DNA from: Candidatus Micrarchaeota archaeon
GTDB lineage: Archaea; B1Sed10-29; JAJSAI01
Assembly: GCA_964625085.1 (NCBI GenBank)
Contig: CAZVAJ010000006.1
Span: 2,812 to 59,571, forward strand
Direction: 5' to 3'
Length of the DNA stretch: 56,760 bases
Shown: positions 45-25,201 of the stretch, in pieces
Layout: every line of letters begins with the position of its first letter
How positions within the stretch are numbered: position 1 is the first letter of the stretch
Position numbers and translations under genes: made by a program
The notes under the pieces: model-generated
The model's database searches: none
Told to the model about the DNA's origin: nothing
Seen by the model: only the letters and a program-made list of their open reading frames with translations

Positions 45-413
45 CTATTTTTCCATGAGCCCTTTGACCTTGCTCACCCCGGACATTACTGCTCCTGCTA
101 ATCCGCTGACTGCATTATCTGCCCAGTCCTTCTCCGTTTTGTCCTTTTCTTTGTACTTTAGTTCTATTTTTTCAGGGATCCTGTAAGGAGCTCCTCTTTT
201 GGATTCTATTACTATGGGCTCAAGCTGTTCATAATCTGCTTTTTTCTCTTTTTCAGAGGCTTTTGGCTCTGGAAGCAAGGCGTACAAGCTGCAGAAAACC
301 ATTGTTACCATCCCAAACGAGGGGTATCCTGAGCTCGCTAGAACATACCAGAAGAACGCGCCCATCAGGAATGCCCAGAACTTCATAATAATCACTCTTA
401 TTTGAATAACCAT
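45..413 (-). CDS. small membrane protein, tandem paralog 3 of 3
   Basis: 122-aa ORF. Hydrophobic N-terminal half ('FWAFLMGAFFWYVLA', 'MVTMVFCSLYALL'), then a K/E-rich linker. 'EPIVIESKRGAPYRIPEKIELKYKEK' and the Gly-rich tail 'GLAGAVMSGVSKVKGL' align with the two upstream ORFs. Overlaps the upstream paralog by 16 nt. Confidence 0.55.
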   Translation of the reverse strand: MVIQIRVIIMKFWAFLMGAFFWYVLASSGYPSFGMVTMVFCSLYALLPEPKASEKEKKADYEQLEPIVIESKRGAPYRIPEKIELKYKEKDKTEKDWADNAVSGLAGAVMSGVSKVKGLMEK

Positions 414-739
414 TCTCCCAGTTTATACAGTCCTTTCCCGAGCGCGCCAACTCCCTTTGCTATGTTACTGGCACCCCTGTACGGGCCGTAATCCTTTGTT
501 TTGTATGTTATCTTGAACTTCGGTGGGTAAAGGTAGGGTGGTTCTCCTTCATCCTCGTATATGACTGGATGAAGCACTGTTTCTTCTTTCTCTTTTTTCT
601 TCATGATCTTTTTCTTTTCTGGCCAAACCGCTCCTGCCACGAGCAGTAGTATCCCTGCCCAGAACAGTATCCCGTACCCTGACAGGTACAGTGCAGCAAG
701 GCAGAGTGCCACTCCTGTTATTAAGACACCTGTTTTCAT
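398..739 (-). CDS. small membrane protein, tandem paralog 2 of 3
   Basis: 113-aa ORF. Two N-terminal hydrophobic helices, linker 'EKKKIMKKKEKEE', 'HPVIYEDEGEPPYLYPPKFKITYKTK' and tail 'AKGVGALGKGLYKLGEWLFK'. ATGA stop-start overlap with the upstream paralog. Confidence 0.6.
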   Translation of the reverse strand: MKTGVLITGVALCLAALYLSGYGILFWAGILLLVAGAVWPEKKKIMKKKEKEETVLHPVIYEDEGEPPYLYPPKFKITYKTKDYGPYRGASNIAKGVGALGKGLYKLGEWLFK

Positions 740-1065
740 TCAAACAGCTCCTTCCAAATTTTTCCGAACAGGTTGCCTACTGCTTTGCCAGTGGTTTCTC
801 CAGCAGCTTTCCAGCCGGCCTTTGGCTTTGCTGTTTCCACTATCTCTATTTCTTCAGGGTATATTGATTCTGGGCCTTCATACTTTCTTTTGACTATTAT
901 AGGCTGGACTTTTACGTTTGAGCCCTTTTTTGAGCCTTTTTTTGCAGTATCCTTTGACACTACTATAAGAATGACGGATGTGATGACTGCTGGAATAAGC
1001 AGGTTCTCAAGGTATGCTCCTGCTAGTACTATCACAAACGCTAGGATGAGCACGCTTGCCTTCAT
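736..1065 (-). CDS. small membrane protein, tandem paralog 1 of 3
   Basis: 109-aa ORF. Two hydrophobic helices, linker 'KDTAKKGSKKGSN', 'QPIIVKRKYEGPESIYPEEIEIVETAK' and tail 'GKAVGNLFGKIWKELFE'. Same architecture as the next two ORFs. Confidence 0.6.
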   Translation of the reverse strand: MKASVLILAFVIVLAGAYLENLLIPAVITSVILIVVSKDTAKKGSKKGSNVKVQPIIVKRKYEGPESIYPEEIEIVETAKPKAGWKAAGETTGKAVGNLFGKIWKELFE

Positions 1066-1072
1066 TTTCCGC

Positions 1073-1366
1073 TTACCCTCCTCCCAAGAGCCTCATTAGT
1101 TCAGGGGAGTAGTATTCTCCGCCTCCGCCTCCTTTCTTGGCAGAAGCGTACAACGCAATTCCTCCTATAACCATCAGGAATATCCACCAGTACTGCGCGT
1201 AACCCATGTACATCGCGATTACTGCCAGGACAGCCACTAAGGTTATTGTTATGCTTCTTGCTAGCACCACCATCAGAGCAAAAGTTACTATGAAAAGCCA
1301 GTCTATTCCCTGCTGCCAGGCAAGAAACGCTACTAGCAGGAGTATTATCACGGTCATTGGGTCCAT
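1073..1366 (-). CDS. small polytopic membrane protein with Gly-rich tail
   Basis: 97-aa ORF that is almost entirely hydrophobic (about 3 predicted helices). It ends in 'AKKGGGGGEYYSPELMRLLGGG'. No recognisable family. Confidence 0.5.
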   Translation of the reverse strand: MDPMTVIILLLVAFLAWQQGIDWLFIVTFALMVVLARSITITLVAVLAVIAMYMGYAQYWWIFLMVIGGIALYASAKKGGGGGEYYSPELMRLLGGG

Positions 1367-1681: not shown

Positions 1682-2482
1682 CTAGACTATTTTCCTAAAG
1701 TCTTCCCATTTCCTGCCAACTTCTTTTTCCACGGCAGGCTTGAGCTTCTCCCACACTCTGAGGAATGCCTTTTTTCTTCTTTCCAGCTCTTGCTCGCTCA
1801 GATCACGGACTATCAACATTTCTTTCAAGTTTCTCTCAAGCCCTTTTGGTTTTTGCTTCAGTCTTTTCACGCACCATAATCTCCAAGGCTCTGAGGGCGT
1901 AGGAGTTTTGTTCAGCGCGAAAAGGGTTTGCAAGAGCATGTCAGTCCCATAGCAGAAGCTCTGGTGAGCTGCGAGAATGTCTCCCCTGTACACCCATTTT
2001 TCAGGCACTCTAACGCAAAAATAGTGGCTTTGCTCCAGGCCCTCCATCAAGAGCCATTTCCTTTCCTTCTCGGAGAGCACTGTTTTCTTTCTTATTAGCT
2101 GTCTGATCTTTTTCTGAGGATCGTAAAATATTTTGTGCTGGGAGTAAGCCCACTTTGCTTCAGGGTCCCAGTGCGCCTTCAGTGCCTTCTCGTACTCTAC
2201 CATGTTCCAGTCTATATTCACTTCTCTTATCCCGTATTTTCTTGCATCTGATTCACTTAGGGGAACCCACAGTTCTCCTTCTCGAGCTAGTCCAATCCTG
2301 GCGCCCTTGCTGACGAAAACGGTCATGTCAATGTCAGAAAACTTGTCAGCATATCCTCTCCCGAGACTACCGAGGCATACTATTCCCAGGACTCCTTTTT
2401 TCTTTTTCAGCTTTTCCGTGAACTCGCGCGCTATTCTTTCATGCAGTTCTATTATGTTCTTGCCCCTGGGGCTTTGGATCAT
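1682..2482 (-). CDS. Pol-beta-superfamily nucleotidyltransferase domain protein
   Basis: Motif 'GIVCLGSLGRGYADKFSDIDMTVFV' (G-S ... D-x-D) is followed by a helical C-terminal region of about 170 aa. I place the start at ATG 2482 ('MIQSPRGK'). The longest ORF (to 2539) would overlap the upstream gene by 47 nt. Confidence 0.7.
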   Translation of the reverse strand: MIQSPRGKNIIELHERIAREFTEKLKKKKGVLGIVCLGSLGRGYADKFSDIDMTVFVSKGARIGLAREGELWVPLSESDARKYGIREVNIDWNMVEYEKALKAHWDPEAKWAYSQHKIFYDPQKKIRQLIRKKTVLSEKERKWLLMEGLEQSHYFCVRVPEKWVYRGDILAAHQSFCYGTDMLLQTLFALNKTPTPSEPWRLWCVKRLKQKPKGLERNLKEMLIVRDLSEQELERRKKAFLRVWEKLKPAVEKEVGRKWEDFRKIV

Positions 2483-2492
2483 GTTCACGCCT

Positions 2493-2846
2493 TCAGAACT
2501 TTTTGAACCTTGGGCTTGCCCAGAAGCCCTGCAGTCCAAAGATTATCATTCCAGAGAGCATGTATGCCATGATAATGTACGTTGACCATACCCCTGCTGT
2601 CACTGGCAGTAATCTTATTCCAAAAATATAGAACAGGATGCCTGTAATAATGTACGTTGTTATTCTTGTTCCTATGACCATCCTCACGAAGCTGTATATA
2701 ATGACCAGGATGTAAAACTGGAAGAGTATCCGGAATATTGGGACAGTGAGGATGGCGGCGGCCATCCCGCCTATTATGACAATGAAAATGAGCGCAAGGA
2801 TTATGAAAGGAAGTATGAAAAACCCCCTGCTTTTTTCCAGGATCAT
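2493..2846 (-). CDS. small polytopic membrane protein
   Basis: 117-aa ORF with about 4 hydrophobic helices. ATGA-type 4-nt overlap with the upstream ORF. Confidence 0.55.
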   Translation of the reverse strand: MILEKSRGFFILPFIILALIFIVIIGGMAAAILTVPIFRILFQFYILVIIYSFVRMVIGTRITTYIITGILFYIFGIRLLPVTAGVWSTYIIMAYMLSGMIIFGLQGFWASPRFKKF

Positions 2847-3250
2847 CTTAGCATTGCCCTCCTTCTGCTTGCTGCAGACTTGCCAGTGTCTGGAGGCAGT
2901 TCGCCTCCGGCTGTTGCCATTGGGCCAGCGATTGACAGGTCATACAATACCATTGTGAACCCGAACGCTATCAGGAAGTAAACGAACATTATGGGCCCGA
3001 ACAAGTTCCAGTACTGGAACAACATCAGGTACCCGAGTATTAGCACTATTGCGGTTATTACCGGGCCTCCTTCAAACCTGCTTCTGACGAACGAGATTAT
3101 GAACAGGAGCACGATGAGCTTGAACCCGAACCACATAAGGTTCCACTCATCCTGCAGCCCAAACGACCTAAGCAGGCTGTCAGTAAAGTCTGTCACTATC
3201 CCTAACACGACCAGCGCGTTCACGTTCAGCATTACAAACAAAAAGAGCAC
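2843..3250 (-). CDS. small polytopic membrane protein with basic C-terminal tail
   Basis: 135-aa ORF with about 4 hydrophobic helices. The tail is 'GGELPPDTGKSAASRRRAMLR'. Confidence 0.55.
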   Translation of the reverse strand: MLFLFVMLNVNALVVLGIVTDFTDSLLRSFGLQDEWNLMWFGFKLIVLLFIISFVRSRFEGGPVITAIVLILGYLMLFQYWNLFGPIMFVYFLIAFGFTMVLYDLSIAGPMATAGGELPPDTGKSAASRRRAMLR

Positions 3251-3268
3251 AGTGGATTATAAAAGTTA

Positions 3269-4213
3269 CTATGTCAGGGTGAACTCGCCGTGATCCCTGA
3301 ACTCAGGAGTTTCAGTTATTGGAGGGACCTCAATATGCTCAGGGGGCACGAAGGTTATTTGTTTAGAAAGCTTGCCGTTTTGGCAGTGATACTTTTCTGG
3401 CTCTTCTTCATTCCCTGAAGTGCTTCCGCTAGTAATGATTGCCTTGAACGTTCCATAATCATGATCATACTCTAGTACTACTTTTACGCCATCTCCTGCC
3501 AAAGAGTCAGTGTACCTTGTTACGATTACACTGTCTACCTCACTACACTTCGTGCCCTCGATGCTGTTTTTAGTTACTCCTTCCCAGATATTGCTTGTGT
3601 CGTCAACCCAGCCTTGCACATTAGTGTCCAGGCAGGCTGACAAGCGTTCCGTGGGGGTGAACGAGATGACCTGTTCTGTACTACTCTCAGGATCTTTTGT
3701 GTGCACTGACATTGCCTGCTTCACGTCCTGGTCTTTAAACCCTGAGGGTAAAACGCTTGCACAGTATTTCCCATTTTCCGCAATTATACTTATTACCTCT
3801 TTTCCTTGAAGGCTTTTACTAATCTCTTCTTTCTTGTCTAAAAAAGCTGTGTCATCCTGCAGTTCTTGTATTCCCAAAGAACTCCTAAGCGCTTCTACTC
3901 CTTTTAACACTGATCTATCCTTAAGGCTGCTCTTGAACGCAGGCCCGGTGAAGTAATATTGTAGGCCTGCTGCATCGCCGGTGTACTTAGAATTCACTTT
4001 TTCTTCCAACATTTCTTTGAGCACGCTTATCATGCCAACATCATAAGTGGCCTTGACTATCTTCGCTTGCACGTAATCCCGGGTGACAATGGAACTGAAA
4101 GAAAGTGATCTGGAAGCCCGAATATCATTCTGCACCATCATTGTCGCGAGAGAGATAGCAAGGATTATAAGGGTGGTGCCCACAAGGGGCGTGAAAAGAG
4201 AAAAGCCTTTCAT
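3269..4213 (-). CDS. secreted/anchored protein with class-III (prepilin-like) signal peptide
   Basis: Starting at ATG 4213 the N-terminus is 'MKGFSLFTPLVGTTLIILAISLATMMV' ([KR]G followed by a hydrophobic helix). AAAGGAG lies 10 nt upstream. An alternative start is ATG 4240, which forms an ATGA overlap with the stop of the giant gene. The remaining ~290 aa are Ser/Thr/Asp-rich and soluble. Confidence 0.6.
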   Translation of the reverse strand: MKGFSLFTPLVGTTLIILAISLATMMVQNDIRASRSLSFSSIVTRDYVQAKIVKATYDVGMISVLKEMLEEKVNSKYTGDAAGLQYYFTGPAFKSSLKDRSVLKGVEALRSSLGIQELQDDTAFLDKKEEISKSLQGKEVISIIAENGKYCASVLPSGFKDQDVKQAMSVHTKDPESSTEQVISFTPTERLSACLDTNVQGWVDDTSNIWEGVTKNSIEGTKCSEVDSVIVTRYTDSLAGDGVKVVLEYDHDYGTFKAIITSGSTSGNEEEPEKYHCQNGKLSKQITFVPPEHIEVPPITETPEFRDHGEFTLT

Positions 4214-4236
4214 CTTCAAGACGCTCCTTTCTTGCT

Positions 4237-7200
4237 TCATGATGTTGCTTGTGAGACATAATTGTCCGAATCCCTGTACCCTTGTCCAAACTCATCATTC
4301 TTGTCAGGAAGTTTTGCGCAATAGTATACCTGAAGACCGTGTGACATAACACCCATCCGCGGGAATTCTCCTTCTGGGCATGAGATGCACATTCCGTCGT
4401 TGCCTGTGGCGTGGCAGGCGTTTTCTCCTGAACACACCCCTGCAAATATTTCGTCATCGCATCTTCTGCTTGCTTCGGAGTAGCAGACATCTCCTGCATC
4501 ACAGTACACAACAGACTGTTTAACATTGGGCCAGTCACAGCATCCTGTGCCCCATACTCTGTGCTTTTCACATTTTCCAGAATACTTCTTTCCGCACACT
4601 TCTCCAGACTTGTCGCTACTGGGCTCTTCAGTCTCAGCGTCAGAAGGATATTCCAAGCCTATCCTGTAGTCAGTTGACCAAAGATGACCAACCCACCCTG
4701 GCGAGAACTCTTCTGTAGCAAGATCCGTGTAACCAATTGCTGCGGCAGGGAATTCAACCTCTTTTTCCCCTGCACTGTACTTTACTCTTATGAACCCGTC
4801 GGTCGTGAACATGTAGTCTCCTGAACCTTCTTCAGGCTTTGCAGTTACTGTAACGTACGCTACCATCCTTCCGTTCGTGTCAAGCTTGCACGTAGTTCCT
4901 TGACTGCACGTGTCTTCGTCTATCTTGTCTCCTGATCTTCCGTACGCGACCGCAGTAAGCTCTGATACCGGAATTGTTACTTCTTTCTTGCCTATTAGGT
5001 CGTACCCGAGATTGTACAGGGTTGTTGACCCCAGCTTGAAGTTAGACACTTCTGTCCCGGTGTCTGTCGTGTACTCTGTCGGGACTATGATCTTGCTCGG
5101 GTAAGAATTAAGCGCGAACACTGCTGTTGGGTCACTGCCTGCAGCCTGTGATGAACCGTCCCCTATGACTGTTTTTGGTTCAGGGTCAAAGAACCAGGTG
5201 CACTTCTTTCCTGGGAGCACTTTCGTGCTTCCAGGGGTACTGCTGGCCTGCAAGAAGCTTACCTTGCTCTTGCCAGTGTCAAGGTACTTGTATCCTTTTA
5301 GTCCCATGTTCTCCGCCAAGCTCTTGTCTATGCTTGACAGTTCACCGTCCACTGCTTTTATGCTGACCACTACTTTTCCTGGCCGGATTGCAGTAAGACC
5401 ATTGTTATCCAAGTCTATTCCAGAGTACGAGAAAGCAGCAGCCACAGGGGAAGTGCAGTCCCAGTACTCGTTGTCAATTGGCTTGAGCTTGAACGCGTAC
5501 GTTTTCTGTTCTCCTGTTACATAACCCTCTTCTATCACTTTTGTAAGGTCTGAGATGCTCGCGTCAGGGAACTTGAACACCAGCAGTTTTTCTCCTTCTC
5601 CGCTTACTTTCAAGTGCTCTTCATCTTCATTGTCGCCTGTTTGTGCGAAGGTTATCAGGCTATTAGCGTTTTCTTTCTTTTTGTCTCCAGGTACTGAAAT
5701 GTACACTTTTCCACGGCCTTCCCACAGGACCGCAGTGTTCTCGGGCAGCATCCATTCTGTGTTAAGGTTCACTCCCGCAAACCTTGCTTTGTAGTCAGAG
5801 GTGCTTGTGCTTTCTGGATCATACCTTTTGTTGCTGAAGCTTTCCGGCGAGTCAATCCAACCAATAATACTGCTGAAAGGAGTGCTTCCAGGTTCAGCAT
5901 ACTCTATCTTAAGGTCTTTAAGGCTTTCTAGTTTAAGCGTGTCAATAAGCAGGCTGTTAAAGTTTTCGCTGACTGTGTCCTCTGGAATGTTTTTGTTCAG
6001 CCAGACAGTGAACGTTCTTCTGGGCACTATTATCTTGTGTTCGCTGTCGTACTGCAAGGTACTCGTTCCCTCAAAGTATGTGTTAAGGTGGTCCAGCATT
6101 TCAGATAATTCTGCCGTACTTGTTCCTATCACATGAACTTTGTGGTTATCATCAACATACACTGCTGGCAGGGCTCCTGCAGGCATGCTTGTTGTTCCCA
6201 TGTGCTTTATCATATCCTGGCATGCTTTGTCTTCTGCTTTCTTGCACTCTTCTATTACCAGTTCATGCTCCCACTTGCTGCTTTTTCCTGCGTCCCTGCC
6301 TAATGAAATCCAGTCTTCAGGATACACGGTATCCTGAGGTATGCTCCAGGCGTTTTTCAGCATTTCTATTGCTTTTTCTTTTAACTTGTCCTGAGAGTCT
6401 GACACGGCTACTGTTATAAGCGTGTTGTACGTTTCAGGAGCCTCTTCCGCGAAACTACTTTCCAGATCAACAGGCAAGAACAGCGCAAACCTTTCCTGAA
6501 TATCATCATCAGTCAGTTCGGATAAGGACTGCGTGTTAAAGCACGCCACGCTCCAACTCTTATCACTTCCTGTTACTGGAAGTGTTTCGATGGTCAGTTC
6601 CCCGGTTCCTATTTCAGGCAGGCAGGACTTTTCTTCCACTTTGTCAGTGAAGCAGAGTTCGGCAAAAGGCTCTTTGTTTGGATCGCATGTTGCGTACAGC
6701 TCGTCAAGGCTTTTACTCTCTTTTACTTCTGCACCTTGAGAAGTGTAGTAGTCAATAATTTCTTGAGCAATGTTCTTGTACGCGTTAGTGAATTCTTCAG
6801 GCACCAGCGTGTAATAAACTGTGTTAAAGTTAGCCTGGTTATAAAGCAGAACCTGTCTTAGGTTGCACATGTGGGATGAGCAGTCGATCTTGTCAGAGTC
6901 AGTCATCTTAAAGTGTGGTTCAAAGTTCCCGTACTCTGTTGGCACTAAGGTTAGTCCTTCTGTACTTATTTCTTGCTCTTCTTTGCTCTCGAGCGTTAGC
7001 GGGACTTCAAGCTTTTTCTGTTTCTTTATTCCATTGCCTTGAAGCGTAAGATTGAGGGAGATGTTTCCTTTACGTGTTTCTCCAGGCAACAGTTCTTTGC
7101 TGAAGTCTATCTCAAACGTTACTGTGTCACTATACCCGTCATTGTCAGCATCTTCTGTGTAAGGTTCTGTTTTAAGAGCGCATGCCAACGGGTCTCCTTC

Positions 7201-10200
7201 TTCTCTTTCTAAGCAGTGCACTTCTTCTGAACTTCCCTCAAACGGTTCTGTGTACCACACGTCCAGCGAAAGCCCGGCACTTGTGCTAATCCCCACTCCT
7301 TGGTTCTTGCACTGCTGGATGAGCGGAACTTCCATTGAAACTTCTTCTGCCTCTTCTGTCGGCGTTGCCACACTTACTTTATTAAGGCCTTTTGGCAGGC
7401 TGCTTTCAGAACACGCGAGTACACTGATCTCTGAAGAAACACCTCCCTGTCTGAAGTACTGTTTTCCGTCATTGTCTGTCTTGCTTGCCACGGTCAGGGT
7501 GTACTCTCTTGGCCCTGTGAACAGTTCTTTGAAGGGGTATTCTCTGTACGTGTTTTCCACTGCAAAGTCCTGCTTGCACTGTGCTGCAAAGTTGGTTATA
7601 TCAGGGTACTCTTCTGATGGGTACTTGCAAAGGGTTTCTCTCTTCTCGTTAGAGATTGTTGCAGAAGAAACCTGCTGGGCAACAGGAAGAATCTGCTGGT
7701 TGAAAACAGCGGGATCAGTTGTTAACACGGTTGTTTTTATGAGATTACCTGTTCCTTCACCAAGGTACTCGGAACATCCTCCTATAATAGTGTCAGTAGT
7801 GTCAGTAACACAGACTTCTTTTCCGTTTGAGTCAACAACCTCCGCGTATAATATCAGCGCTTTCCCCTCCTTTTTGAGGTCGAGCAAGGACTGGTATCCG
7901 CTGCTGTCCGTGAGAATGACTGTTTTTATTGTATCTTCTCTGCCTTGCCCGAACAGTTCTTTCCCATAGTTCTGCCAGCAGTCAGCCAGGTTAAGCAAGA
8001 TATTATTATTTTCATCTGTTGCCAGGTCCTGGGCTGGCAGAGTGCACACATTCTTCCCGTTCGGGTCTGTTATCGTAACCTTGTCTACGTATTCTTCCAG
8101 GTACTCTGCAATGTTTTTGCCAGTGTTCCTGTCCATAATGCTTATTTTTATCTGGCCGGAAAATTCTGTTATTTCATCTTCGTCTAATATCTGAAGTTCT
8201 GGGTAAAGCGCGCCGCCTACTTCTCTGTAATACTCTCCAAGTTTCGTATCATCTGCTTTCAGTGTATAGTGCATGTTCCCGTAGAACTCAGGGGTTATGC
8301 TGACGCTGACGGTCATGTTTGTTAGTCTGCCCTTGACAAATTCTATGCTGTAGCTATTAGTATTCTCTTCTACGCTTAACACGGTTTCTGGGTTAGTGTC
8401 TTCTGCAGAGCCTTCTGTTGATATCTCTGCTGTTCCATCATACTCTAAGGAGATTTTTGGTGCTGTTGCGATGTCTCCCAGTGGGAAGATGTTAGCTTTT
8501 AGCACAGGTTTCTCAATAAACTGCACTGTTTTTGTGGCATCGTACGGTTTTTCCGTGACTCCTCCGTTTTCTATCCACATTTTCCAGCATATCTGTTTCT
8601 CAGAATCGCATTCCACTTCTTCTTCGTAGTCCACGTTTTCTGCAGTTACCTTAAGTGTGAAAGTCCTGTCTCCTACATTTATTGTTATGTCTCCTGTCCC
8701 GTCAGAAACAGCGTATAAAGGGAACACTACGCGCAGCCTGTCCCTGAATCTTATTCCTTGTTCTGTGGTGCTGCGGGAGTAATCTCCTTTCTTTACGCTG
8801 AACTCAGACCAGGTGTTTGCAATGCTTCCTGTTGTCTTGTCAATGTTTGATACGTCTAGGGAGGTTCCTTCAGGCATGGTCACCTGCACGCTTATCTTGT
8901 TATTCTCATCTTCCAGTAGCGCAGTAGAACCTGAAGCCTGCACTTTCAGCTGGTCAGTTAGCAAGCCTGTTCCATAATACCCTATTTCTAGCGCTACTTC
9001 TTTCGTTTTCCCTTCACTCATTATTATACTCCAAGGCGCTTCCTTAAAGCTTGAGATCTTAAACTCTGCAGCAGGCCCAAAGCTTGCTGTTTGTCCCAGC
9101 GTGACCGGATAGGGTCCTGCATTCCCGGTTATCATACCTCCTTCGCACGAGAGGTTTATTGCAAGCCCTGCCACATTGTTTCCTGTTGGTATGCGGGTGC
9201 CGGCAGGCAGGACAAGGTGAAGCGCTCCGTTGTAATACTCTGGCTGTCCAGCATATATTGTGCTGAATGTAAGGTGCCTGCCTCCTTTTACTACCTGCAC
9301 TTCCATCCAAGGCTCAGAACTGCAGGCTGCGCTGATGCTAGCGCTCTTTAGCTTTCTTCCTTTGTGCTCTTCGTTTACCCAAGTACCTACTATTATGCTA
9401 TCGCCAAGGTTCTGTGAAGCCTGGGTGTTAACAGGGTTTATGCTTATGCGTGTTTCGGTCTCAGCATACGCTTTCAGGCACACGTTGTCTATGCACTGTT
9501 CTTCAGGCAGGTTTTCTTTTGTCACGCGCAGGAGCACAGGGCTTGTTGCACTTGCAAAATTGTTATCGTCTTTTTTTATGTGTATGTTCGCGTCTCCTGG
9601 AAGCCAGCCTTTTCCTACTGCTATGAAAGTGTAAGAGGCGTCAGGGTTATTGAACGATATCATGGCACTTGTTTGGCTGTTGTCGTCTGATTTTTCCAGC
9701 GTGTATTCTGTTACTTTTCCAGCAGGGTATTCTGAATCAACCCGAGAGAACCGCACGTGATTCTCTGTTTCTCCAGCGTTTATGCTGAACTGCTCGCTTG
9801 AGTAGTATCCTGGAAGGGGAGAGATGGTGGTGCTTACAGTGAACTCTTGTTCAAAAGAAATGCTAGGCTTTTCTGCCGGAGGATAAGTTTGCCCTTCTGA
9901 TATTAGTACTGTGCGTTCCATGAGCCCGTTTTCCTCGTCGCAGACGAAGGTTCCTTTTTCCCAGTCAGACGTTTCGTAGTCTTCAGGGTTTTTGCATACT
10001 ATCCTGGAGAGCACGATGGTTAGAGACTTGAACGCGACACTGTCTGATCCTATGTTCAAGCTTATTACAGCTTCTGTGTTGTTTTCCAGGACATTGTTCA
10101 CTTTGAACGGCGCCCAAATTTCTACTGTCTCGCCGGTTAGTATACCGTAATCTTCAGGGTCATCACTCCTGCGGCAGTATGATAAGAAGCTTGCTGTTGT

Positions 10201-18027: not shown

Positions 18028-18082
18028 GGAAAAGAAAACGTTTAAAAACAACCCATCGCTTCTTATACCAAGGTGATGATGT

Positions 18083-18520
18083 ATGAAGGGTCAGGCTTTT
18101 AGTACTTTTCAGTTGATGATTGCGGCTGTGGTCGCGATAGCGATTCTTGGAATACTACTCGCGATAATAGGAGGAATATCTCCGCAGGTATCAAGTCCGA
18201 AGCACGCAATAGAAAACTCCTTGAGAGAAGCGTATTCTTCTCCTGGAATAATCAAGTCTTCTGCTCAGAAGGTGAGGTTCATTGAAGGAGATGCTTACCC
18301 TGGAAGCGCGTTCAGCGAATCTGTTGCAGGAGGGACACCTGTCCAGTTCGTCTGCAAGAGTGGAATAACAGGCTGCAATGCGGACGATCCTACAAAGCTG
18401 GTTGTTGATTCAACGTTCGATGCTAAAATATATGCTACGTGCGGGGACTCTCTTTGTTGTGTTGGTATAGGTACAAGCGACATTGACGCATCCGGCTCAG
18501 ATTGTAGCCATACTTCCTAA
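18083..18520 (+). CDS. prepilin-like protein (class-III signal peptide, KGQ type)
   Basis: The N-terminus is 'MKGQAFSTFQLMIAAVVAIAILGILLAII'. AGGTGA lies 6 nt upstream. Confidence 0.7.
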   Translation: MKGQAFSTFQLMIAAVVAIAILGILLAIIGGISPQVSSPKHAIENSLREAYSSPGIIKSSAQKVRFIEGDAYPGSAFSESVAGGTPVQFVCKSGITGCNADDPTKLVVDSTFDAKIYATCGDSLCCVGIGTSDIDASGSDCSHTS

Positions 18521-18539
18521 GTGCAGGAGGATAAATATT

Positions 18540-18683
18540 ATGAGGAAAGGACAGAACTGGACGCCGATTTACCTGGTGATAATAATAGCGATAGCAGTCA
18601 TACTCATCTTCACGATAATCAAGCCCATGTTCTCCCAGGCAGGGCAGTACGTGCAGCAGACCCTGCCCGCGCTCCTGCGCTGA
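18540..18683 (+). CDS. 47-aa mini-prepilin-like peptide
   Basis: 'MRKGQNWTPIYLVIIIAIAVILIFTIIKPMFSQAGQYVQQTLPALLR'. GGAGG lies 9 nt upstream of ATG 18540. The longest ORF (18483) overlaps the previous gene. Confidence 0.5.
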   Translation: MRKGQNWTPIYLVIIIAIAVILIFTIIKPMFSQAGQYVQQTLPALLR

Positions 18684-18720
18684 AAAAACCCTTTTATACT
18701 CTGCTAGTTTTACTCTAAGC

Positions 18721-19272
18721 ATGAGGCTCAGGGGACAGGAGGAAGCGCCGATAGAACTGCTCATAGGGGTTACTGTCCTAACGTTCGTGCTCATAATAGC
18801 ATACTACGTTTACGAGAACGCATCCTCCCAGCAGTGTGTTGAAAAAATAAAGGCCACTTCAGCAGAGCTGGCCAGCGTGATTTCCCAGGTGGCTCAAGGA
18901 GGTCCTGGCACCACAAGATACTTTTCAGCAGACTTCAGTTGCGAGGACACGAGCACCAGGATCTCTTACGTGATAATCGGAAAAGGAAACAAGCAAACCT
19001 GCAGGTCACTGTTCGGAAGACCAGACTGTTACATGCTGTACGTTTTCGGGAACGTGTCCGGAAACCTGCAGTTGGTGCACGCTGAAGTGCTGCAGAATGT
19101 TTTCAGCCCGCCCAAGATGGACGTGGGGGGCAGTACCCTGGAGCTAACATGCGATTACAACACCCTAATAAAAGGACAGTGTGGAAGGGATATGGAAATG
19201 CCTGCCAGGATTTACAGCATGAGGATTTCAAAACAGGCTGACGGAAGCGTGCTCATTTCAGGAGTTGATTAA
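18721..19272 (+). CDS. prepilin-like protein
   Basis: The N-terminus is 'MRLRGQEEAPIELLIGVTVLTFVLIIAYYV' (RGQ followed by a hydrophobic helix). Confidence 0.6.
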   Translation: MRLRGQEEAPIELLIGVTVLTFVLIIAYYVYENASSQQCVEKIKATSAELASVISQVAQGGPGTTRYFSADFSCEDTSTRISYVIIGKGNKQTCRSLFGRPDCYMLYVFGNVSGNLQLVHAEVLQNVFSPPKMDVGGSTLELTCDYNTLIKGQCGRDMEMPARIYSMRISKQADGSVLISGVD

Positions 19273-19274
19273 TC

Positions 19275-19784
19275 TTGAAAGGCCTTGCGATGTGGACTCT
19301 TTCAAAGATCGTGATGCTGGTGTTCCTTTTCACCATGATGACTTCGGTCCTGTACTACCAGCAGTGGATCAGCCAGCTTACCAGAGTAGAGCAGGCAAAG
19401 AGCATGACAAACCAGGTCAGGGAAGGGTTTAACCGGGCTCTCCTGCCAGAGTCTCTTGAGGCACGGATTCTGGTGCCCGTGTTCCAAGCTGCTTCAGGAG
19501 AACAATACACTATCAGAATAGAATCCAGCACGGTCAGCGGGCAAAAAGTGGTTTCAGTGCTGTTCGCTTACGGTGACCACGGCCAAGCGTTTAACGGCCC
19601 ATGGGATTCTGCAACTTCCTTGGCAGTAAGCAGTGATATCTCGCTTGACCCTGATCCTTTCACGATCAATTCTACTGCAAGGACAATAGAAATAAATAAA
19701 ACAGTAACACCTGCAGGCGTGCATGTGAGCCTGACAGGATGCAGGCTCATAACAAGCTCAGGAGCCTGCTTGCAAGCATCTTGA
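19275..19784 (+). CDS. prepilin-like / N-terminally anchored protein
   Basis: TTG start. The N-terminus is 'MKGLAMWTLSKIVMLVFLFTMMTSVLYY'. It follows the previous stop after 2 nt. Confidence 0.5.
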   Translation: MKGLAMWTLSKIVMLVFLFTMMTSVLYYQQWISQLTRVEQAKSMTNQVREGFNRALLPESLEARILVPVFQAASGEQYTIRIESSTVSGQKVVSVLFAYGDHGQAFNGPWDSATSLAVSSDISLDPDPFTINSTARTIEINKTVTPAGVHVSLTGCRLITSSGACLQAS

Positions 19785-19794
19785 GGGTGATGGG

Positions 19795-20223
19795 ATGAAG
19801 CGCAGGGGTTTTATAGGGCCGGTTGGAGATGATCTTCCGACAATCATAATAATAGTCATGGCGCTCACGCTGTTCTTCGCAGGGTTTGACTACGCGATGT
19901 CAGCATACAATGAGAAAAACAAGAGCCTTCACGCCCTAAAAGCAGGTCTGGACATAAGCAGGGCACTAATGAAGCAAAACGTGATCCCTGAAGATTCTTC
20001 TGGTCAAGTTAATCCGGACTATGAGGGGTACAAGCAAGCGGTGCTGCTTTCCCAGTCTTACGGCACTAGTTTTTCAGCAGTCTTAAAAGACGGTTCCTGC
20101 GAGCTGATTGACTGCAGGGCGCCAGAAGGCAGGAGCGTTTCAGTGTTCTCTTTTCTTACTGCTGCAAAAAGCAGCGGAGGAAGCATAAACTTGAAGACCT
20201 TGTGCGTTTGCGTTTGGGAGTGA
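19795..20223 (+). CDS. prepilin-like protein
   Basis: The N-terminus is 'MKRRGFIGPVGDDLPTIIIIVMALTLFFAGF'. GAGGGTGA lies upstream. Confidence 0.55.
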   Translation: MKRRGFIGPVGDDLPTIIIIVMALTLFFAGFDYAMSAYNEKNKSLHALKAGLDISRALMKQNVIPEDSSGQVNPDYEGYKQAVLLSQSYGTSFSAVLKDGSCELIDCRAPEGRSVSVFSFLTAAKSSGGSINLKTLCVCVWE

Positions 20224-20228
20224 TTCAT

Positions 20229-20717
20229 GTGAAAAAAGGTCAGGCTGCTGTCATGGACGGGCTTATTCTGGTGCTTGTGATTTCAGGAGCAGTCACTATG
20301 CTCGTCCTTGTTTCAGGAATGTACGCTGCAAGCACAAGGAACCAGGTGCTTGGGTCTTACTCGTACGAGTACGCTGGTAACGCTCTTGTGGCCCTGCACT
20401 ATGCCAGAGACAGTGACGGAAACTGGTTCTGGCTGCAGCTTGAAGAAAAAAGAGAGTCCTCTGACCCTAGCGGGGACACAGAAGATTATCTGAAAGCCAA
20501 TCTTGATTTAATTGAAAAGATCAGTGCAAGCTCGCCTGCTGGCACGAATCTGTTGTGCTTTTCCAGCTCAGGCTCGTTTTCAGACTGCTATAACCTGAAC
20601 AATAACGGAGAAAGTTTAAGCCCGTTGCCTGATCCTGTGTGCGGTCCAGGATCTAACGCTTACTCTTACACCAGTTTTATTGGCGATGAAAAAATTTCAT
20701 TTATCCTGTGCTACTAG
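20229..20717 (+). CDS. prepilin-like protein (KGQ type)
   Basis: Starting at GTG 20229 the N-terminus is '(M)KKGQAAVMDGLILVLVISGAVTMLVLV'. The longest ORF (20202) overlaps the previous gene. Confidence 0.6.
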   Translation: MKKGQAAVMDGLILVLVISGAVTMLVLVSGMYAASTRNQVLGSYSYEYAGNALVALHYARDSDGNWFWLQLEEKRESSDPSGDTEDYLKANLDLIEKISASSPAGTNLLCFSSSGSFSDCYNLNNNGESLSPLPDPVCGPGSNAYSYTSFIGDEKISFILCY

Positions 20718-23700
20718 CCTTGCTTTCTTTTTCTCGCGAGCTCTCTTGCTATCGCAAGGCTCGCGATTATCATCAGCACGAACACTATTCCCGCATTGCC
20801 TTCTGGAACTGACGGCAGCGAGAGCAGAGGATTCTGCTGAGTAGTAACAGGGCCCTTGGGCGGATTGACATCAGGCGCGCCCCACGGTGGCTTTGACGGG
20901 GTCATGAGCCCAAGCCCATTAGCGCCAAGTGTAGTGAACTGGGGGTTAAGCGGGAAATAGAACTCGTTGGTCATGCCTATCTTTCCATTGCTTGAAGTGT
21001 ACCCTCCGTTAGGCCCGTTCATCCACATCATGGGAACGCTTCCGTGGCCTATGACATTCCCGTTCCCGTCTGTTATCACGAGCCTGGGTACTCCGTCAGG
21101 CCCTGCTTCTATTGTGGCAAAGTACGTTTTCCCGTCCTCTCCTGTTAGCTGGTACCCTGGCTTGTCGGAGTAAGGCGATTCTTCGCTAGTGACCCACTTT
21201 TCTACTGTGTACGTTTGGGTTACTGGATTACCATCGTCTCCGGTGTAAGTGAAAGTGAACACGTTGTTCCCGTTTTCGTCTTTGTGGAAGTCAGCGACCT
21301 CGTTGTCTGTGCCGCCGAACGTGGGCATGCACATTGTTTCTTCCTTTGTTTTCCACTGCGTCATGATATCCTCATCAGCGCTTTCTTTGAACTTCCACAC
21401 AAGCTTCCAGCCAGGAGTTCCGTCAGGCATCGTGCAGTTCTCTGTATCAAAGTAGCCTGCGGCATCGTCAAACATTGTCAGGTCAGAGCTGAGGTCTTGT
21501 TCTAATCCTGAAAGCACTCCGCTCAGGTACACGTGGTACACGCCTGAAAAGTCTGTTTTTTCGTCCTGTTTGAACCCTGGCCTGATCATGCCGCTGGAGA
21601 ACACTATGCTTCCTTCTGCGCCCAAGCTTGTTTTGCAGACTGTCTTGCCTTCTGACACCACTTCTATAGTGCCCATGCTGTCTCTCTTGAACTTTATGTG
21701 CGAGTTCGGATAGTGCATGGTTCCTCCGAACGTTGCGCCTTCACAGTCCGGGATTCCAGCATAGAAAGTGGCAATAGTCTCGTTAGTTCCGGGCTTGAAC
21801 CAGAGGATCGTGTCCTTTGCGTTCACTACCTGAAGGTTTCCGAACGCGCTTGCTATGATCATGTCCTTGTACTCCTGGCTGAGGTGCTCGTTGTCCAGTG
21901 CCAGGATATCTTTTGACTCCAGCGCGCTCCTGAAGCAGTCATTGTAAACATGCACTTCCCCTCTCGGGTTGATGTCCAGGAGCAGCGGGTCTTCATCGTT
22001 CTTTCTCACTTCAATGACCTTGCTCACAAGGTACGCGTACCCTTTGTCCATGTCGACCCCTAGGCTTAATAGCTGTGGCGCTGGGCCTTCTAGCACGGGC
22101 TTGCCGTCAGGCCCAAGGAAGTAGTACCCGCTCTCCTGAGAGCACTTGAAGTTTCCGTTAGGATCTTCGTAGCACAGGCTTATCGGACAGTCTTTTGGTA
22201 TGAACCACCTGACGTTCCCTCCATGCATGTACACATCATAAATCCTGTCCGCAAGAATGCTTGCCCTGCCCACATTACCCTCTGTCGGAATTGCCTGGCC
22301 GACAAGATGCATTCTTTGAACCTGGTATCCTGCGTAGTTCTCCCAGTCAGAGATCATTTTTCCTGCTTCAGGAGACATGCCTTGTATCAGTGACTTAACC
22401 TGAGAGATCCCCTGGTTTACAGGGTTCTCTGATTCTGCTGCCTGCTGCAGGTCCTGTGCTGTCGGAATCTTTTGTATTGCAGCAAGCTCTGCGTTCGGCT
22501 CATAGCAGTCCATCAGCTTTTCTATTGCTTCTTTTTGAACGTCTATTGCTTTCATTTCAGCGTACATTGACGCGAAATCAAGCGCTATCTCGCCTATAAC
22601 TGCCGGAGGGAATACCTCAGAAGCTGCTTGGAACCCTCTTGCCCCTATCATCAGCCAGAGCGCTCCTGTCTTTGCAGCGCCAATTTCCCCAGCGCCAGCC
22701 ACATCACCCACTATTGGAGTAAATTCTTTTTCTGATTCTACTCTGTTTTCCCAGCCTGCTCCAGCATACTTCTTCGCTACTTCGGTGCAGAGTTTTGCTT
22801 TGTTCTCGTACGCTATTTTCGGGTCTATTAGCACTCCCTCTGTCAGCGCGTCCCAGGAATCAGAGCCAGCACTTACAAATTGCCCGCTTCCTACTTGTGC
22901 AAACCACCAGATGGTAACTGCGGTTCCTGTAAAGGAAAGAGCACCTGTGGGGAATATTGTCCGCGGGACTCCGACTATCCAAGCATAGTTTAGGGCCATG
23001 GCGCCTATTGCTCTTGTGGCTCCTGCAGTCATTTTCAATGTCTGCTTGAACGCGTTATTGTCTTTTTCAAAGATCCCTCCTTGAGTTAGCACGTTATGAG
23101 AGTAAAGCCAGATAGAGGTGTAGCCAGGCATTACTCTCTGTGCATCTGGATCTTCCCATGCAAGATAGCCTACTGAGCCAGGGTGCACTGAGTAGAAGTA
23201 GAACGCTTCTCCAAACGGTTTGATGATGTTGGTTGGTTTTCCTCCTCCTGCAGTGTCAAAGTTCACCTGGTCCACGATGTACACGTGTTTCCCAAGATGC
23301 CTTGCTTTTTGAGTGAGCCTGTTCGGGAGCCCGTAAGTGTTTGGGTCGACTCTCGTAGTGAGAAAACCGAAAGCAACGCTCATTGCAGTATTCTGTTCAG
23401 GCTTTCTAGGGGTGTAAACGCTGTTGGCTTCTATTTCAGTACCAACATAACAGTTTGTATCTTCTCCCCTGACTTTTTTGAGCTTGTTGCACTCTTCTTT
23501 TGAAATGTCATAGTCTACTGCATCAATCCTGAAGTATGGGTCAATCAAGTACTCATTATACCCAGAGGTTGCTACGTAGGAGATGAGCAGGCTCGCCATT
23601 GCCAGCCTCAATGCCCTTCCTTTCAGTCCAGCAATCCGCGCGCCAAGCCGTATAGCAGAGGATATCTTTTTAATCCTTTCCCCTTCTTCTATCCCCTCTA

Positions 23701-25201
23701 AACCAAGTTTGTATGCTTCGCTTCCCTTGCCCCATTCCATAACTTTATAAGATGCTGCCCGCAGTTCTTGCAGTTTTTCTATTTTCTTTTGGTTTTCTAG
23801 AAGTTCTGTGCTATATTTTACTATTGCGTCAGCATTATCTGTTTTCTCAGCAGCGTACAATCCCTCTCTAAGTATCTTCTGTTCTTTCTTAAGTTTACTG
23901 ATTTCTTTTGGTAAATCATCCACGTTTTTGGCAGCCTGTTCAATCGCGTCTGCGCCAACAAGTTGCCTCCGGCCCCATCCTTTTATACTCTGCCAGCGTC
24001 TTCCCCACCAGCCAATTTGTTCCGCTGCTTCGGAAGCTTGCCTTCCTCCTGTTTCTGCATCCTGGATTATTTTTGAAATGTCTTTTATCGTGTCATCAGT
24101 CAGAGATTGCTGAAAGTTCTTATTTCTCAGACTATTCTTTATTCCTTCTTTTACTCTTGTTGTCCACTTGGTTCCCTCTTTGACCCCTTCTTCCCCAATC
24201 TCCTTAGTTCCCTGCTGTCCTATGTCTGATGCACCGCTTTTTTTGAAAGAGGCCAGTAAGGACGCGCTAGCCACGATCAAGTACCAGTCATCAAAGCTTC
24301 TCCATAACTGCATCCATTTTATGAACTTTGAGTATGTTTCTGGTATCAGATACATTTCAGCCTGCGAGACAGGAGCTAAAGAAAGGTACAAGTAGTCTGA
24401 AGTTACCTTGTTGTAAGGGATCTGCAGGGATTTCATCAGCTTGCTTATCTTGTCTGACTGTTCCACGCCCACTGCTTGAAGCATCTGGACCTTTTCAGTT
24501 TCAGTGTAATCAGAAGGGTCAAACGAGTCAGGATCGATCTCTCCAACCACTGACTCAATTCCTTGCCTTATCTTGGGATTGCCTTTTATTATTCTTCTCA
24601 CGCTTGTTTTGTTTTTCATAAGGGCATCCTTAAACTCTACGAGCGCGTTGTTCTGTTCTCTTAAGCTTTCTGCACCTTTGCTGCTTTCCCAGCCTGAATT
24701 GCACGTGTCCTCGTCTCCACAGAACGCTGTTTCCCCTGTCCTAATAGCGTACGACATCTTTCCGTCGTACACCAGGTTCGTGAGGTGACATGCTTCTGCA
24801 GGAGAGGCCACCTGATGCCTCTGGACATCGTACAAGAGTATCTTCCCGTTCGGGCCCATCACAAAATTGTTTTTGGCGAAAGCAGTGCCAGGGACTTCTG
24901 ACTGTTCTTGCTCATCATACGCTGCTTCCTGCGCTCCTTTAGCATAGTCTCCGTACGCGTCTATCTGAGGCAGGTTGTTTATCACGTGTCGTCTTAGAGC
25001 GCGATAGTCAGAATAGTTGAACTTGTCTATTCCCACTTCTCCAGCGCACTTATCCTCGTCTGTTGTTTCTTTTGCAGGCTTGTTTTCTTTTGGTTCCCAG
25101 AAAGTGGATGCTTTCATCGCAGATTTTTCAGGCTGTGCGTACGTGAACGGAGAAAACAATGAAACAGTGATTATCACGGCAAGCAATATTTCTGACTTCA
25201 T
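20714..25201 (-). CDS. large (1495 aa) surface protein with Sec-type signal peptide and sortase-type C-terminal sorting signal
   Basis: The N-terminus is 'MKSEILLAVIITVSLFSPFTYAQ'. There are internal hydrophobic segments and a ~230-aa K/E-rich predicted coiled-coil stretch. The C-terminus is 'VPEGNAGIVFVLMIIASLAIARELARKRKQG'. No recognisable catalytic motifs. Confidence 0.85.
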   Translation of the reverse strand: MKSEILLAVIITVSLFSPFTYAQPEKSAMKASTFWEPKENKPAKETTDEDKCAGEVGIDKFNYSDYRALRRHVINNLPQIDAYGDYAKGAQEAAYDEQEQSEVPGTAFAKNNFVMGPNGKILLYDVQRHQVASPAEACHLTNLVYDGKMSYAIRTGETAFCGDEDTCNSGWESSKGAESLREQNNALVEFKDALMKNKTSVRRIIKGNPKIRQGIESVVGEIDPDSFDPSDYTETEKVQMLQAVGVEQSDKISKLMKSLQIPYNKVTSDYLYLSLAPVSQAEMYLIPETYSKFIKWMQLWRSFDDWYLIVASASLLASFKKSGASDIGQQGTKEIGEEGVKEGTKWTTRVKEGIKNSLRNKNFQQSLTDDTIKDISKIIQDAETGGRQASEAAEQIGWWGRRWQSIKGWGRRQLVGADAIEQAAKNVDDLPKEISKLKKEQKILREGLYAAEKTDNADAIVKYSTELLENQKKIEKLQELRAASYKVMEWGKGSEAYKLGLEGIEEGERIKKISSAIRLGARIAGLKGRALRLAMASLLISYVATSGYNEYLIDPYFRIDAVDYDISKEECNKLKKVRGEDTNCYVGTEIEANSVYTPRKPEQNTAMSVAFGFLTTRVDPNTYGLPNRLTQKARHLGKHVYIVDQVNFDTAGGGKPTNIIKPFGEAFYFYSVHPGSVGYLAWEDPDAQRVMPGYTSIWLYSHNVLTQGGIFEKDNNAFKQTLKMTAGATRAIGAMALNYAWIVGVPRTIFPTGALSFTGTAVTIWWFAQVGSGQFVSAGSDSWDALTEGVLIDPKIAYENKAKLCTEVAKKYAGAGWENRVESEKEFTPIVGDVAGAGEIGAAKTGALWLMIGARGFQAASEVFPPAVIGEIALDFASMYAEMKAIDVQKEAIEKLMDCYEPNAELAAIQKIPTAQDLQQAAESENPVNQGISQVKSLIQGMSPEAGKMISDWENYAGYQVQRMHLVGQAIPTEGNVGRASILADRIYDVYMHGGNVRWFIPKDCPISLCYEDPNGNFKCSQESGYYFLGPDGKPVLEGPAPQLLSLGVDMDKGYAYLVSKVIEVRKNDEDPLLLDINPRGEVHVYNDCFRSALESKDILALDNEHLSQEYKDMIIASAFGNLQVVNAKDTILWFKPGTNETIATFYAGIPDCEGATFGGTMHYPNSHIKFKRDSMGTIEVVSEGKTVCKTSLGAEGSIVFSSGMIRPGFKQDEKTDFSGVYHVYLSGVLSGLEQDLSSDLTMFDDAAGYFDTENCTMPDGTPGWKLVWKFKESADEDIMTQWKTKEETMCMPTFGGTDNEVADFHKDENGNNVFTFTYTGDDGNPVTQTYTVEKWVTSEESPYSDKPGYQLTGEDGKTYFATIEAGPDGVPRLVITDGNGNVIGHGSVPMMWMNGPNGGYTSSNGKIGMTNEFYFPLNPQFTTLGANGLGLMTPSKPPWGAPDVNPPKGPVTTQQNPLLSLPSVPEGNAGIVFVLMIIASLAIARELARKRKQG
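20717..20809 (-). other. putative archaeosortase recognition signal (VPEG motif + TM helix + basic cluster)
   Basis: The last 31 aa are 'VPEG-NAGIVFVLMIIASLAIA-RELARKRKQG'. This is the tripartite layout of PEP-CTERM/PGF-CTERM-type signals. Confidence 0.5.

Follow-up and report, generated by a model that had tools for sequence, protein, structure and literature searches.

We analysed a 56,760-nucleotide stretch of DNA from a Candidatus Micrarchaeota archaeon (contig CAZVAJ010000006.1 of assembly GCA_964625085.1, positions 2,812 to 59,571; below, the window), in which one open reading frame (ORF) encodes a giant protein of 2810 amino acids (aa). On balance, we favor the reading that this protein is a surface adhesin of a hydrothermal-vent DPANN archaeon, anchored in the membrane with its N terminus inside the cell and composed of a stalk and a variable head, and that a conserved N-terminal segment, referred to here as the tag, couples it to a pilus-like machine. 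The parts of the giant protein are given below by window position, with the evidence that delimits them.

4237 to 12669, minus strand: the giant ORF, 2810 aa, ATG start, no internal stops
12532 to 12669, minus strand: conserved acidic tag, aa 1 to 46, two predicted helices (HMMER, invariant residues, AlphaFold2)
12448 to 12531, minus strand: transmembrane helix and Gly-rich disordered linker, aa 47 to 74 (hydropathy, AlphaFold2)
10000 to 12438, minus strand: stalk of eight to nine predicted beta-sandwich domains (CarboxypepD_reg/prealbumin/macroglobulin [MG]-like), aa 78 to 890 (Pfam, AlphaFold2, Foldseek)
7084 to 9999, minus strand: lineage-specific region, aa 891 to 1862 (phmmer coverage, blastp, position of the mid-module in other members)
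5683 to 7083, minus strand: second family-conserved module, here the mid-module, mixed alpha/beta, aa 1863 to 2329 (five-member hidden Markov model [HMM], alignment, AlphaFold2)
4597 to 5682, minus strand: variable C-terminal region, aa 2330 to 2691 (predicted local distance difference test score [pLDDT] below 50; no homologues beyond P0002, the closest relative of the giant protein)
4318 to 4596, minus strand: Cys-rich terminal module with 14 Cys, aa 2692 to 2784 (Cys count)

The tag was the most conserved part of the protein. The first five homologues that we retrieved aligned over N-terminal parts only, with 24 to 36% identity, and their N termini were nearly identical to that of the giant protein, with the pattern [YF]Y.[IV]EDKWFDLLDWL....[IV]PVYK.VDP[LI]E..GIPSLP followed by a hydrophobic helix. 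A search for this segment in other archaeal proteins had been proposed in the original prediction, and we ran it exhaustively with HMMER, comparing an 80-position N-terminal profile with 1.84 billion representative proteins. The search recovered a conserved tag in at least 933 cluster representatives at E ≤ 1e-3, with 313 of them at E ≤ 1e-10, and among the 150 matches listed the alignments began by residue 34 and finished by approximately residue 100. The carriers were mostly 1500 to 3600 aa long, and short carriers resembled contig-end fragments; 61 of the 67 complete tagged ORFs in genome loci were longer than 1100 aa, with a median of 2485 aa. Mean identity to the giant protein over 14 homologues was 59% in the tag, 40% in the transmembrane helix and linker, and 25% in the stalk, a ranking that points to a conserved partner of the tag in the cytoplasm or the membrane. 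Invariant residues include Y11, E15, D16, D23, Y33, D37, P38, E40, G43, and P45. The two helices span aa 3 to 27 and 32 to 41 in the AlphaFold2 model of aa 1 to 900, and the tag closes with the motif DP[LI]E..G-IP[ST][LF]P. No match to the tag was found in Pfam, NCBIfam, or the PDB sequences. The tag and the transmembrane helix, which hundreds of paralogous and orthologous giants have in common, are best read as a family-defining module for anchoring and addressing.

Judged by the labels of the source genomes, nearly all tagged giants came from Micrarchaeota and Iainarchaeota (Diapherotrites), both of the DPANN kingdom Nanobdellati. Three tagged loci (L047, L068, and L072) sit in metagenome-assembled genomes labeled Thaumarchaeota or Chloroflexota, probably because DPANN contigs contaminated these bins. 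In more distant subfamilies, two to three tagged giants occurred in tandem, often each with a pilin-like gene carrying the signal G|F.LFTALV. Such arrays (L013 [3337, 10001], L015 [3319, 10001], L025, L026, and L093) reached approximately 25 kb in genomes of approximately 1 Mb, and tandem giants were present in the closed Iainarchaeota genomes CP010424.1 and CP064981.1 as well as in the single-cell genome of Iainarchaeum andersonii. Some tag variants of the tandem-array giants had no G or N ahead of [IV]PSF. The sequences are best read as many divergent cargoes that would share one address tag.

The ORF itself is real, intact, and under purifying selection. It had been described as uninterrupted over 8.4 kb, and a single frame without internal stops was what we found; an in-frame stop lies two codons 5' of the ATG, and GGTGG is placed approximately 8 nucleotides before it. 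The contig was assembled from short reads of a hydrothermal-vent metagenome. In four metagenome runs of different samples, Logan contigs, themselves short-read assemblies and not long reads, tiled positions 3200 to 13300 with no indels and no joints. The four runs contained 31 single nucleotide polymorphism (SNP) sites in the gene, 18 of them synonymous. An apparent stop at 4678/4679 was a W-to-Y change when the adjacent pair of SNPs was read jointly, and no other SNP created a stop. Full-length homologues of 1800 to 3000 aa were present in many genomes, including closed ones.

The N terminus had originally been described as a charged segment of approximately 45 residues followed by one transmembrane helix, without a Sec signal, and both composition and hydropathy supported this description. 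The first 46 residues contain 6 K/R and 8 D/E and thus do not form a Sec-type n-region. Only one hydrophobic segment was found in the whole protein, at approximately aa 47 to 72, and in the model the transmembrane helix covers aa 47 to 64, while the linker at aa 63 to 74 had pLDDT values below 50. The hydrophobic helix together with the uncharged stretch had a median length of 33 aa across the family. With an acidic n-region of 46 aa and a hydrophobic or uncharged stretch of approximately 25 to 33 aa, the N terminus does not qualify as a Sec (class I) signal. The 15-aa flanks of the transmembrane helix held 1.6 versus 0.8 K/R across the family, a modest positive-inside bias, and from this bias, the extracellular type of the domains, and the conserved Cys residues of the stalk we infer N-in (type II) anchoring.

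The stalk was recognized by both sequence and structure. Within aa 72 to 579, Pfam detected CarboxypepD_reg, SpaA/prealbumin, and bMG3 domains. The profile searches that had been suggested placed CarboxypepD_reg (PF13620) above its cutoff (58.6 bits against 32.3) in three stretches, with bMG3 just below its own (34.5 bits against 34.9). The AlphaFold2 model of aa 1 to 900, made with 14 homologues, had a mean pLDDT of 78.9 and contained eight to nine all-beta domains that continued up to approximately aa 890. Both lines of evidence assign the stalk to the CarboxypepD_reg/prealbumin-like beta-sandwich domains, and thus the fold given in the original prediction was upheld, while its number of repeats, about six, was too low. 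Self-BLAST revealed no internal sequence repeats, and the repetition is therefore only structural. The Cys residues C171, C196, C201, C242, C486, and C498 were invariant or nearly so throughout the family. Foldseek matched the stalk to MG strings of alpha2-macroglobulin, Gram-positive pilins, integrin legs, and SlaB, with a best E value of 2e-13; the TM-scores were low because individual domains alone match. As modeled, the stalk is a generic string of beads.

Outside the stalk and tag the family diverges strongly. Conservation across the whole family was confined to approximately aa 1 to 800 (blastp, phmmer), and the mid-module is a second conserved part. Beyond approximately aa 600, no Pfam or NCBIfam cutoff was reached (NCBIfam had no match anywhere in the protein), and the long region without recognizable motifs that had been noted earlier comprises approximately 1900 aa for which Pfam, NCBIfam, and fold searches gave no recognizable fold. 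A search of the PDB sequences with the whole protein yielded two marginal matches only (E of approximately 0.4), and the tag and mid-module profiles yielded none. The region of aa 891 to 1862 was similar only to P0002 and is missing from most family members. Of the 152 family proteins that we retrieved, 17 contained the mid-module, in most cases at approximately aa 1100 to 1500 of their own sequence, and the giant protein thus has approximately 950 additional residues between the stalk and this module. Its detection needed an HMM that was anchored by hand on five sequences; jackhmmer with aa 1991 to 2420 recovered P0002 alone. The module contains the near-invariant motif C1930-x4-C1935-x3-Q1939 (window positions of approximately 6853 to 6882, minus strand), usually CN.EQ at the start of a helix, with R in place of E in the window protein. 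This motif recalls the CGEQ thioester motif, but the spacing differs. The AlphaFold2 model of the mid-module was of moderate confidence only, and neither fold nor profile searches found a match in the PDB. The Cys-rich end of the original prediction was also observed, with 14 of the 54 Cys residues located in aa 2692 to 2784; this module matched DUF7630 weakly (Pfam, E = 0.012), and comparable ends were present in P0002 and P0006. In other members the distal regions vary and include a CAP domain, Big domains, FG-GAP-like repeats, and Cys-rich ends. A beta-sandwich stalk with conserved Cys residues and variable distal domains is compatible with a projecting fiber or adhesin.

The giant gene had been reported to be embedded among small membrane proteins and coupled to a pilin-like gene. 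This arrangement is conserved across Micrarchaeota and Iainarchaeota, where it comes together with a type IV pilus-like machine. The genes of the cluster in the window are the following.

3269 to 4213, minus strand: large pilin-like partner, 314 aa, class III signal MKG|FSLFTPLVG (from sequence)
12708 to 13259, minus strand: minimal archaeosortase/exosortase-like membrane protein, 183 aa (TIGR04178, Pfam Exosortase_EpsH)
13223 to 15547, plus strand: T2SSE/FlaI-type secretion ATPase with a long N-terminal extension (Pfam T2SSE [PF00437], NCBIfam FlaI/TadA-like)
15531 to 17597, plus strand: polytopic platform protein, 688 aa, weakly TadC/T2SSF-like (Pfam T2SSF, conserved position)
17623 to 20717, plus strand: six small pilin-like genes with class III signals (sequences; kept in related loci)
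20714 to 25201, minus strand: protein of 1495 aa; Sec signal peptide and, at the C terminus, LP..P[ED]G followed by a transmembrane segment and a basic tail (RKRK) (sequence, C termini of homologues)
2493 to 3250, minus strand: two polytopic membrane proteins of 135 and 117 aa, both conserved (sequences; found on the downstream side of the giant in every cluster locus)
45 to 1366, minus strand: four tandem small membrane proteins, 97, 109, 113, and 122 aa (sequences)

The cluster has the components of an archaeal type IV pilus-like system, namely a T2SSE ATPase, a platform protein that is weakly T2SSF-like, and class III pilins. The ATPase matched PF00437 with 68 bits (6.9e-19), and the ATPases of related loci were 52 to 86% identical. 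The platform protein scored 16.9 bits for T2SSF, under the cutoff of 25.2, with its position kept and 48 to 71% identity across loci. Four of the six small pilins carry the class III signal [KR]G|Q, and the other two carry KG|L and RG|F. The ATPase, platform, and pilin genes are transcribed divergently from the pair formed by the giant and the archaeosortase-like gene, which precedes the giant by 38 nucleotides on the same strand. The full gene order recurred in loci across Micrarchaeota and Iainarchaeota whose giants shared only approximately 25% identity, and when genome loci were anchored on the ATPase, 11 of the 14 with enough flanking sequence held a tagged giant within 10 kb. Homologues of the large pilin-like partner with the signal G|F.LFTALV adjoined tagged giants in distant loci, and the genes for the 97-, 109-, and 113-aa small membrane proteins were kept in related clusters. 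No A24 prepilin peptidase gene was found among the window ORFs that were scanned.

The mechanism that we propose starts from a tag that would remain cytoplasmic as an acidic helical hairpin of 46 aa. The giant would be inserted as a signal-anchor, with one transmembrane helix, the N terminus inside, and a flexible Gly-rich linker following it, and the conserved stalk of eight to nine domains would keep approximately 1900 aa of fast-evolving distal domains off the cell. Judging from sequence conservation, the tag may dock on a conserved part of the co-encoded pilus-like machine, which could be the N-terminal extension of the ATPase, the cytoplasmic loops of the platform protein, or the small membrane proteins. 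Docking would place the giant at the pilus apparatus or assemble it with the apparatus, probably with involvement of the large pilin-like partner, and the variable head would attach to a surface or to a host cell. Both the adhesive function and the need for dedicated export factors are suggested by the genomic context.

Several observations weigh against this proposal. Positively charged residues are only modestly biased toward the inside, and the net charge of the tag is negative (−2 in the giant protein; family mean, −3). The Gly/Ser-rich linker after the transmembrane helix could be a signal-peptidase site. Approximately one-quarter of the tag loci with adequate flanks had no ATPase within 10 kb, and the tandem-array loci almost never showed one, though giants occupy those flanks. 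Additionally, the structure prediction and Foldseek search that had been proposed resolved the stalk but not the distal part: the approximately 1900 distal residues had no confident structure, and aa 1840 to 2810 were modeled with a pLDDT of 43 and a best Foldseek E value of 0.29. In an extended form of the proposal, the tag would be a new kind of cytoplasmic address signal that would hand cargo of 2000 to 3000 aa to a specialized type IV pilus-like ATPase and platform. This would be an undescribed archaeal display pathway that, together with the archaeosortase and its sorted partner, might form a host-attachment organelle; we regard this extension as possible but doubtful.

The main alternative to an anchored fiber is that the tag and the hydrophobic helix form an extended signal peptide that is cleaved in the Gly-rich linker, after which the giant would be released or held by protein contacts, for example, with the pilin-like partner. 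Residues G, S, and A crowd just past the helix in most members, where the AlphaFold2 model is disordered, and the linker contains candidate signal peptidase I sites such as ISGG|Q. The giant has no C-terminal anchor, and the conserved N-terminal extensions of giant secreted bacterial adhesins are typically cleaved signals. However, the n-region is acidic and helical rather than short and basic, and the family median of 33 aa for the hydrophobic helix and uncharged stretch is long for a cleaved h-region. The ESPR, YSIRK, and KxYKxGKxW models of such bacterial extensions had no match at the N terminus of the giant (Pfam, E ≤ 1; NCBIfam, E ≤ 0.1). The strong conservation of 40 cytoplasmic residues suggests a lasting interaction, although transient targeting would conserve them too. 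Weighing these points, we consider cleavage unlikely.

It is more improbable still that the giant is an N-terminally anchored component of an S-layer-type wall or canopy that works independently of the pilus machine, so that the synteny would reflect only a shared island of surface genes. Some likeness of the stalk to the SlaB S-layer stalk was seen (Foldseek rank 46), some tagged giants are located away from an ATPase, and S-layer-like proteins are often found in archaeal type IV pilus loci (PMC4858521). Tandem divergent paralogues with hypervariable distal parts are, however, atypical of a lattice former, the order with the ATPase and platform genes is tightly kept across phyla, and the best-conserved part of the protein is the cytoplasmic tag.

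We also give little credence to a giant pilin, in which EK[HRK]G|IPSLP and the hydrophobic helix would act as a class III signal; a prepilin peptidase would remove a leader of 43 aa by cutting at G43|I44, and the N-terminal helix would then integrate the giant into the filament. The window protein and its closest relatives do show the [KR]G|hydrophobic likeness, and the gene belongs to a pilus locus with six class III pilin genes close by on the other strand. Across 126 tags, however, the residue before IPS was G in 95, N in 30, and D in 1, with Y or I in some paralogues, and the −2 residue was K/R in only 63. The leader would be 43 aa long, acidic (net charge of −2), folded into two helices, and better conserved than the "mature" part, and, unlike in pilins, the helix is set off from the first beta domain by a disordered Gly linker; the failure to find a prepilin peptidase gene among the scanned window ORFs also speaks against this reading. 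The giant was rejected as a true prepilin on the length and charge of its leader and on its −1 and −2 residues. Finally, an assembly artefact or pseudogene-derived chimera, to which the short-read origin of the contig lends some color, is practically excluded by the reproduction of the whole ORF in four runs, the synonymous skew of the SNPs, and the full-length homologues.

Three further assignments were tried and rejected. The giant is not an archaeosortase substrate because it lacks a C-terminal transmembrane segment: it ends in ...YVSQATS, has no C-terminal hydrophobic segment, and is hydrophobic only at aa 47 to 72. It is not an alpha2-macroglobulin, since only its MG-like domains recall one, no A2M or TED match was found in Pfam, and the C-x3-Q of the family is spaced differently and lies in an alpha/beta module. 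Enrichment for N-glycosylation was likewise discarded. The original prediction counted at least 15 sequons, and 18 N-x-S/T sequons are indeed present, but 22.7 are expected from the composition, and the count therefore carries no signal.

Compared with known systems, the anchored stalk-and-head adhesin that we favor is closest in context to the PilY1/DUF2341 pilus-tip adhesins. In both cases, a large nonpilin protein with a presumed adhesive head is encoded in a type IV pilus locus with minor pilin-like partners. The giant differs by having a cytoplasmic tag and a transmembrane helix instead of a Sec signal, by being two to three times larger, and by its restriction to Micrarchaeota and Iainarchaeota. 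No PilY1/PilC beta-propeller or DUF2341 domain was detected in the giant at a Pfam E value of ≤1, and the likeness is one of genomic context only. Because the pairing of the giant with a large true pilin is conserved, the two may function in the manner of PilY1 and its minor pilins. A PilY1-like role of large proteins in archaeal type IV pilus loci was proposed by Makarova et al. (2016; PMC4858521) on other families.

The ESPR proteins (autotransporters and two-partner secretion), YSIRK proteins, and KxYKxGKxW proteins (SecA2/Y2 serine-rich adhesins) resemble the giant in combining a conserved extension before the hydrophobic core with a very large surface protein, and the Gly-rich stretch by the hydrophobic region is found in the GspB-type signal as well. 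In contrast to these basic extensions, the tag is acidic, helical, and archaeal, and there is no sequence match between them. The machine beside the giant consists of a type IV pilus-like ATPase and platform, whereas the KxYKxGKxW adhesins use SecA2/Y2. Tandem prealbumin, MG, or Ig-like domains like those of the stalk occur in the MG domains of bacterial alpha2-macroglobulins, the B repeats of Gram-positive pilins and MSCRAMMs, NOMO, and SlaB. The giant is set apart from these by its N-terminal anchoring, and no thioester domain, bait region, isopeptide motif, or sortase signal was detected in it. The SPEARE proteins of Nanohaloarchaeota (PMC6642349) are also products of very large genes, carried by host-dependent archaea whose genomes are tiny, and are thought to mediate host contact. 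They belong to another lineage and are described by protease, adhesion, and endonuclease domains, and neither the homologue searches nor the tag profile searches revealed homology to SPEARE proteins; the tag was retrieved only from genomes of the Micrarchaeota/Iainarchaeota type.

The archaeosortase-like protein beside the giant belongs to its family by TIGR04178 (38.7 bits against a cutoff of 23). Its Cys/Arg/His motifs (DLC[ATV]G, NP[LV]RI, and H) were invariant in eight orthologues, and no named archaeosortase or exosortase subtype reached its NCBIfam cutoff. From its C-terminal sequence, which homologues share, the 1495-aa protein is a likely substrate. Minimal archaeosortase-like enzymes of approximately 130 to 180 aa were paired within clusters with secreted proteins of 1300 to 1600 aa that end in LP..P[ED]G, a transmembrane segment, and a basic tail. 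Together they resemble a sortase/CTERM pair, dedicated and so far undescribed, of Micrarchaeota and Iainarchaeota. Immediately upstream of the gene for the 1495-aa protein, an ORF of 274 aa (25198 to 26022, minus strand) ends in LAP, a transmembrane segment, and RRRRR, and it may encode a second C-terminally sorted protein.

Other features of the window were observed in addition. Large pilin-like partners of 314 to 701 aa, found in the window and in L025 (6800 to 9907), L026 (8310 to 9863), L063 (8260 to 9873), and L098 (111 to 2213), shared the signal [KR]G|F[STN][LV]FT[AP][LM]V. The motif of the partner is near the bacterial GFTL[IL]E prepilin motif, but T replaces the Glu at +5. The 109-, 113-, and 122-aa small membrane proteins share hydrophobic N-terminal helices and a charged tail with P[IV][IV]...Y/IP..[IF].[IL]. 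Only the window (1682 to 2539, minus strand; 285 aa) and the closest related locus, L001, have a gene for a protein with a nucleotidyltransferase domain inserted between the genes for the polytopic and for the small membrane proteins. Two further type IV pilus-like loci lie on the minus strand, a second at 28856 to 31849, with a T2SSE ATPase that has an N-terminal 4Fe-4S ferredoxin domain (30167 to 31849), and a third at 33532 to 37549, with an ATPase that has a PilB3_C-like tail (35624 to 37549); both have split TadC-like genes and pilin-like ORFs nearby. The G+C content falls from approximately 0.46 to approximately 0.39 to 0.42 over positions 44000 (approximate) to 56760, where sugar-nucleotide genes include those for UDP-glucose dehydrogenase and GDP-mannose dehydratase/epimerases, and this block may be a glycan-synthesis island.

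The ideas that DPANN archaea have giant surface proteins and that archaeal pilus loci encode large adhesin-like proteins are already known. In the open-access literature and the curated libraries, we found no description of the acidic tag, its nearly exclusive occurrence on giants, the giant family, the mid-module, or the pairing of the pilus-like machine with a minimal archaeosortase. Because curated family and structure resources do not cover them, the tag and the mid-module are candidates for new family definitions. The tag offers a sequence handle for finding giants in metagenomes, its 45 residues can serve as bait for the partner that recognizes it, and it gives a testable connection of giant surface proteins with both type IV pilus-like machines and a minimal archaeosortase. 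Genomes of approximately 1 Mb devote 8 to 25 kb to one to three tagged giants, and the family is therefore probably central to the lifestyle of these archaea. Its role is most likely in host or surface contact, and the family is a good candidate for the display of host-binding fibers by DPANN cells.

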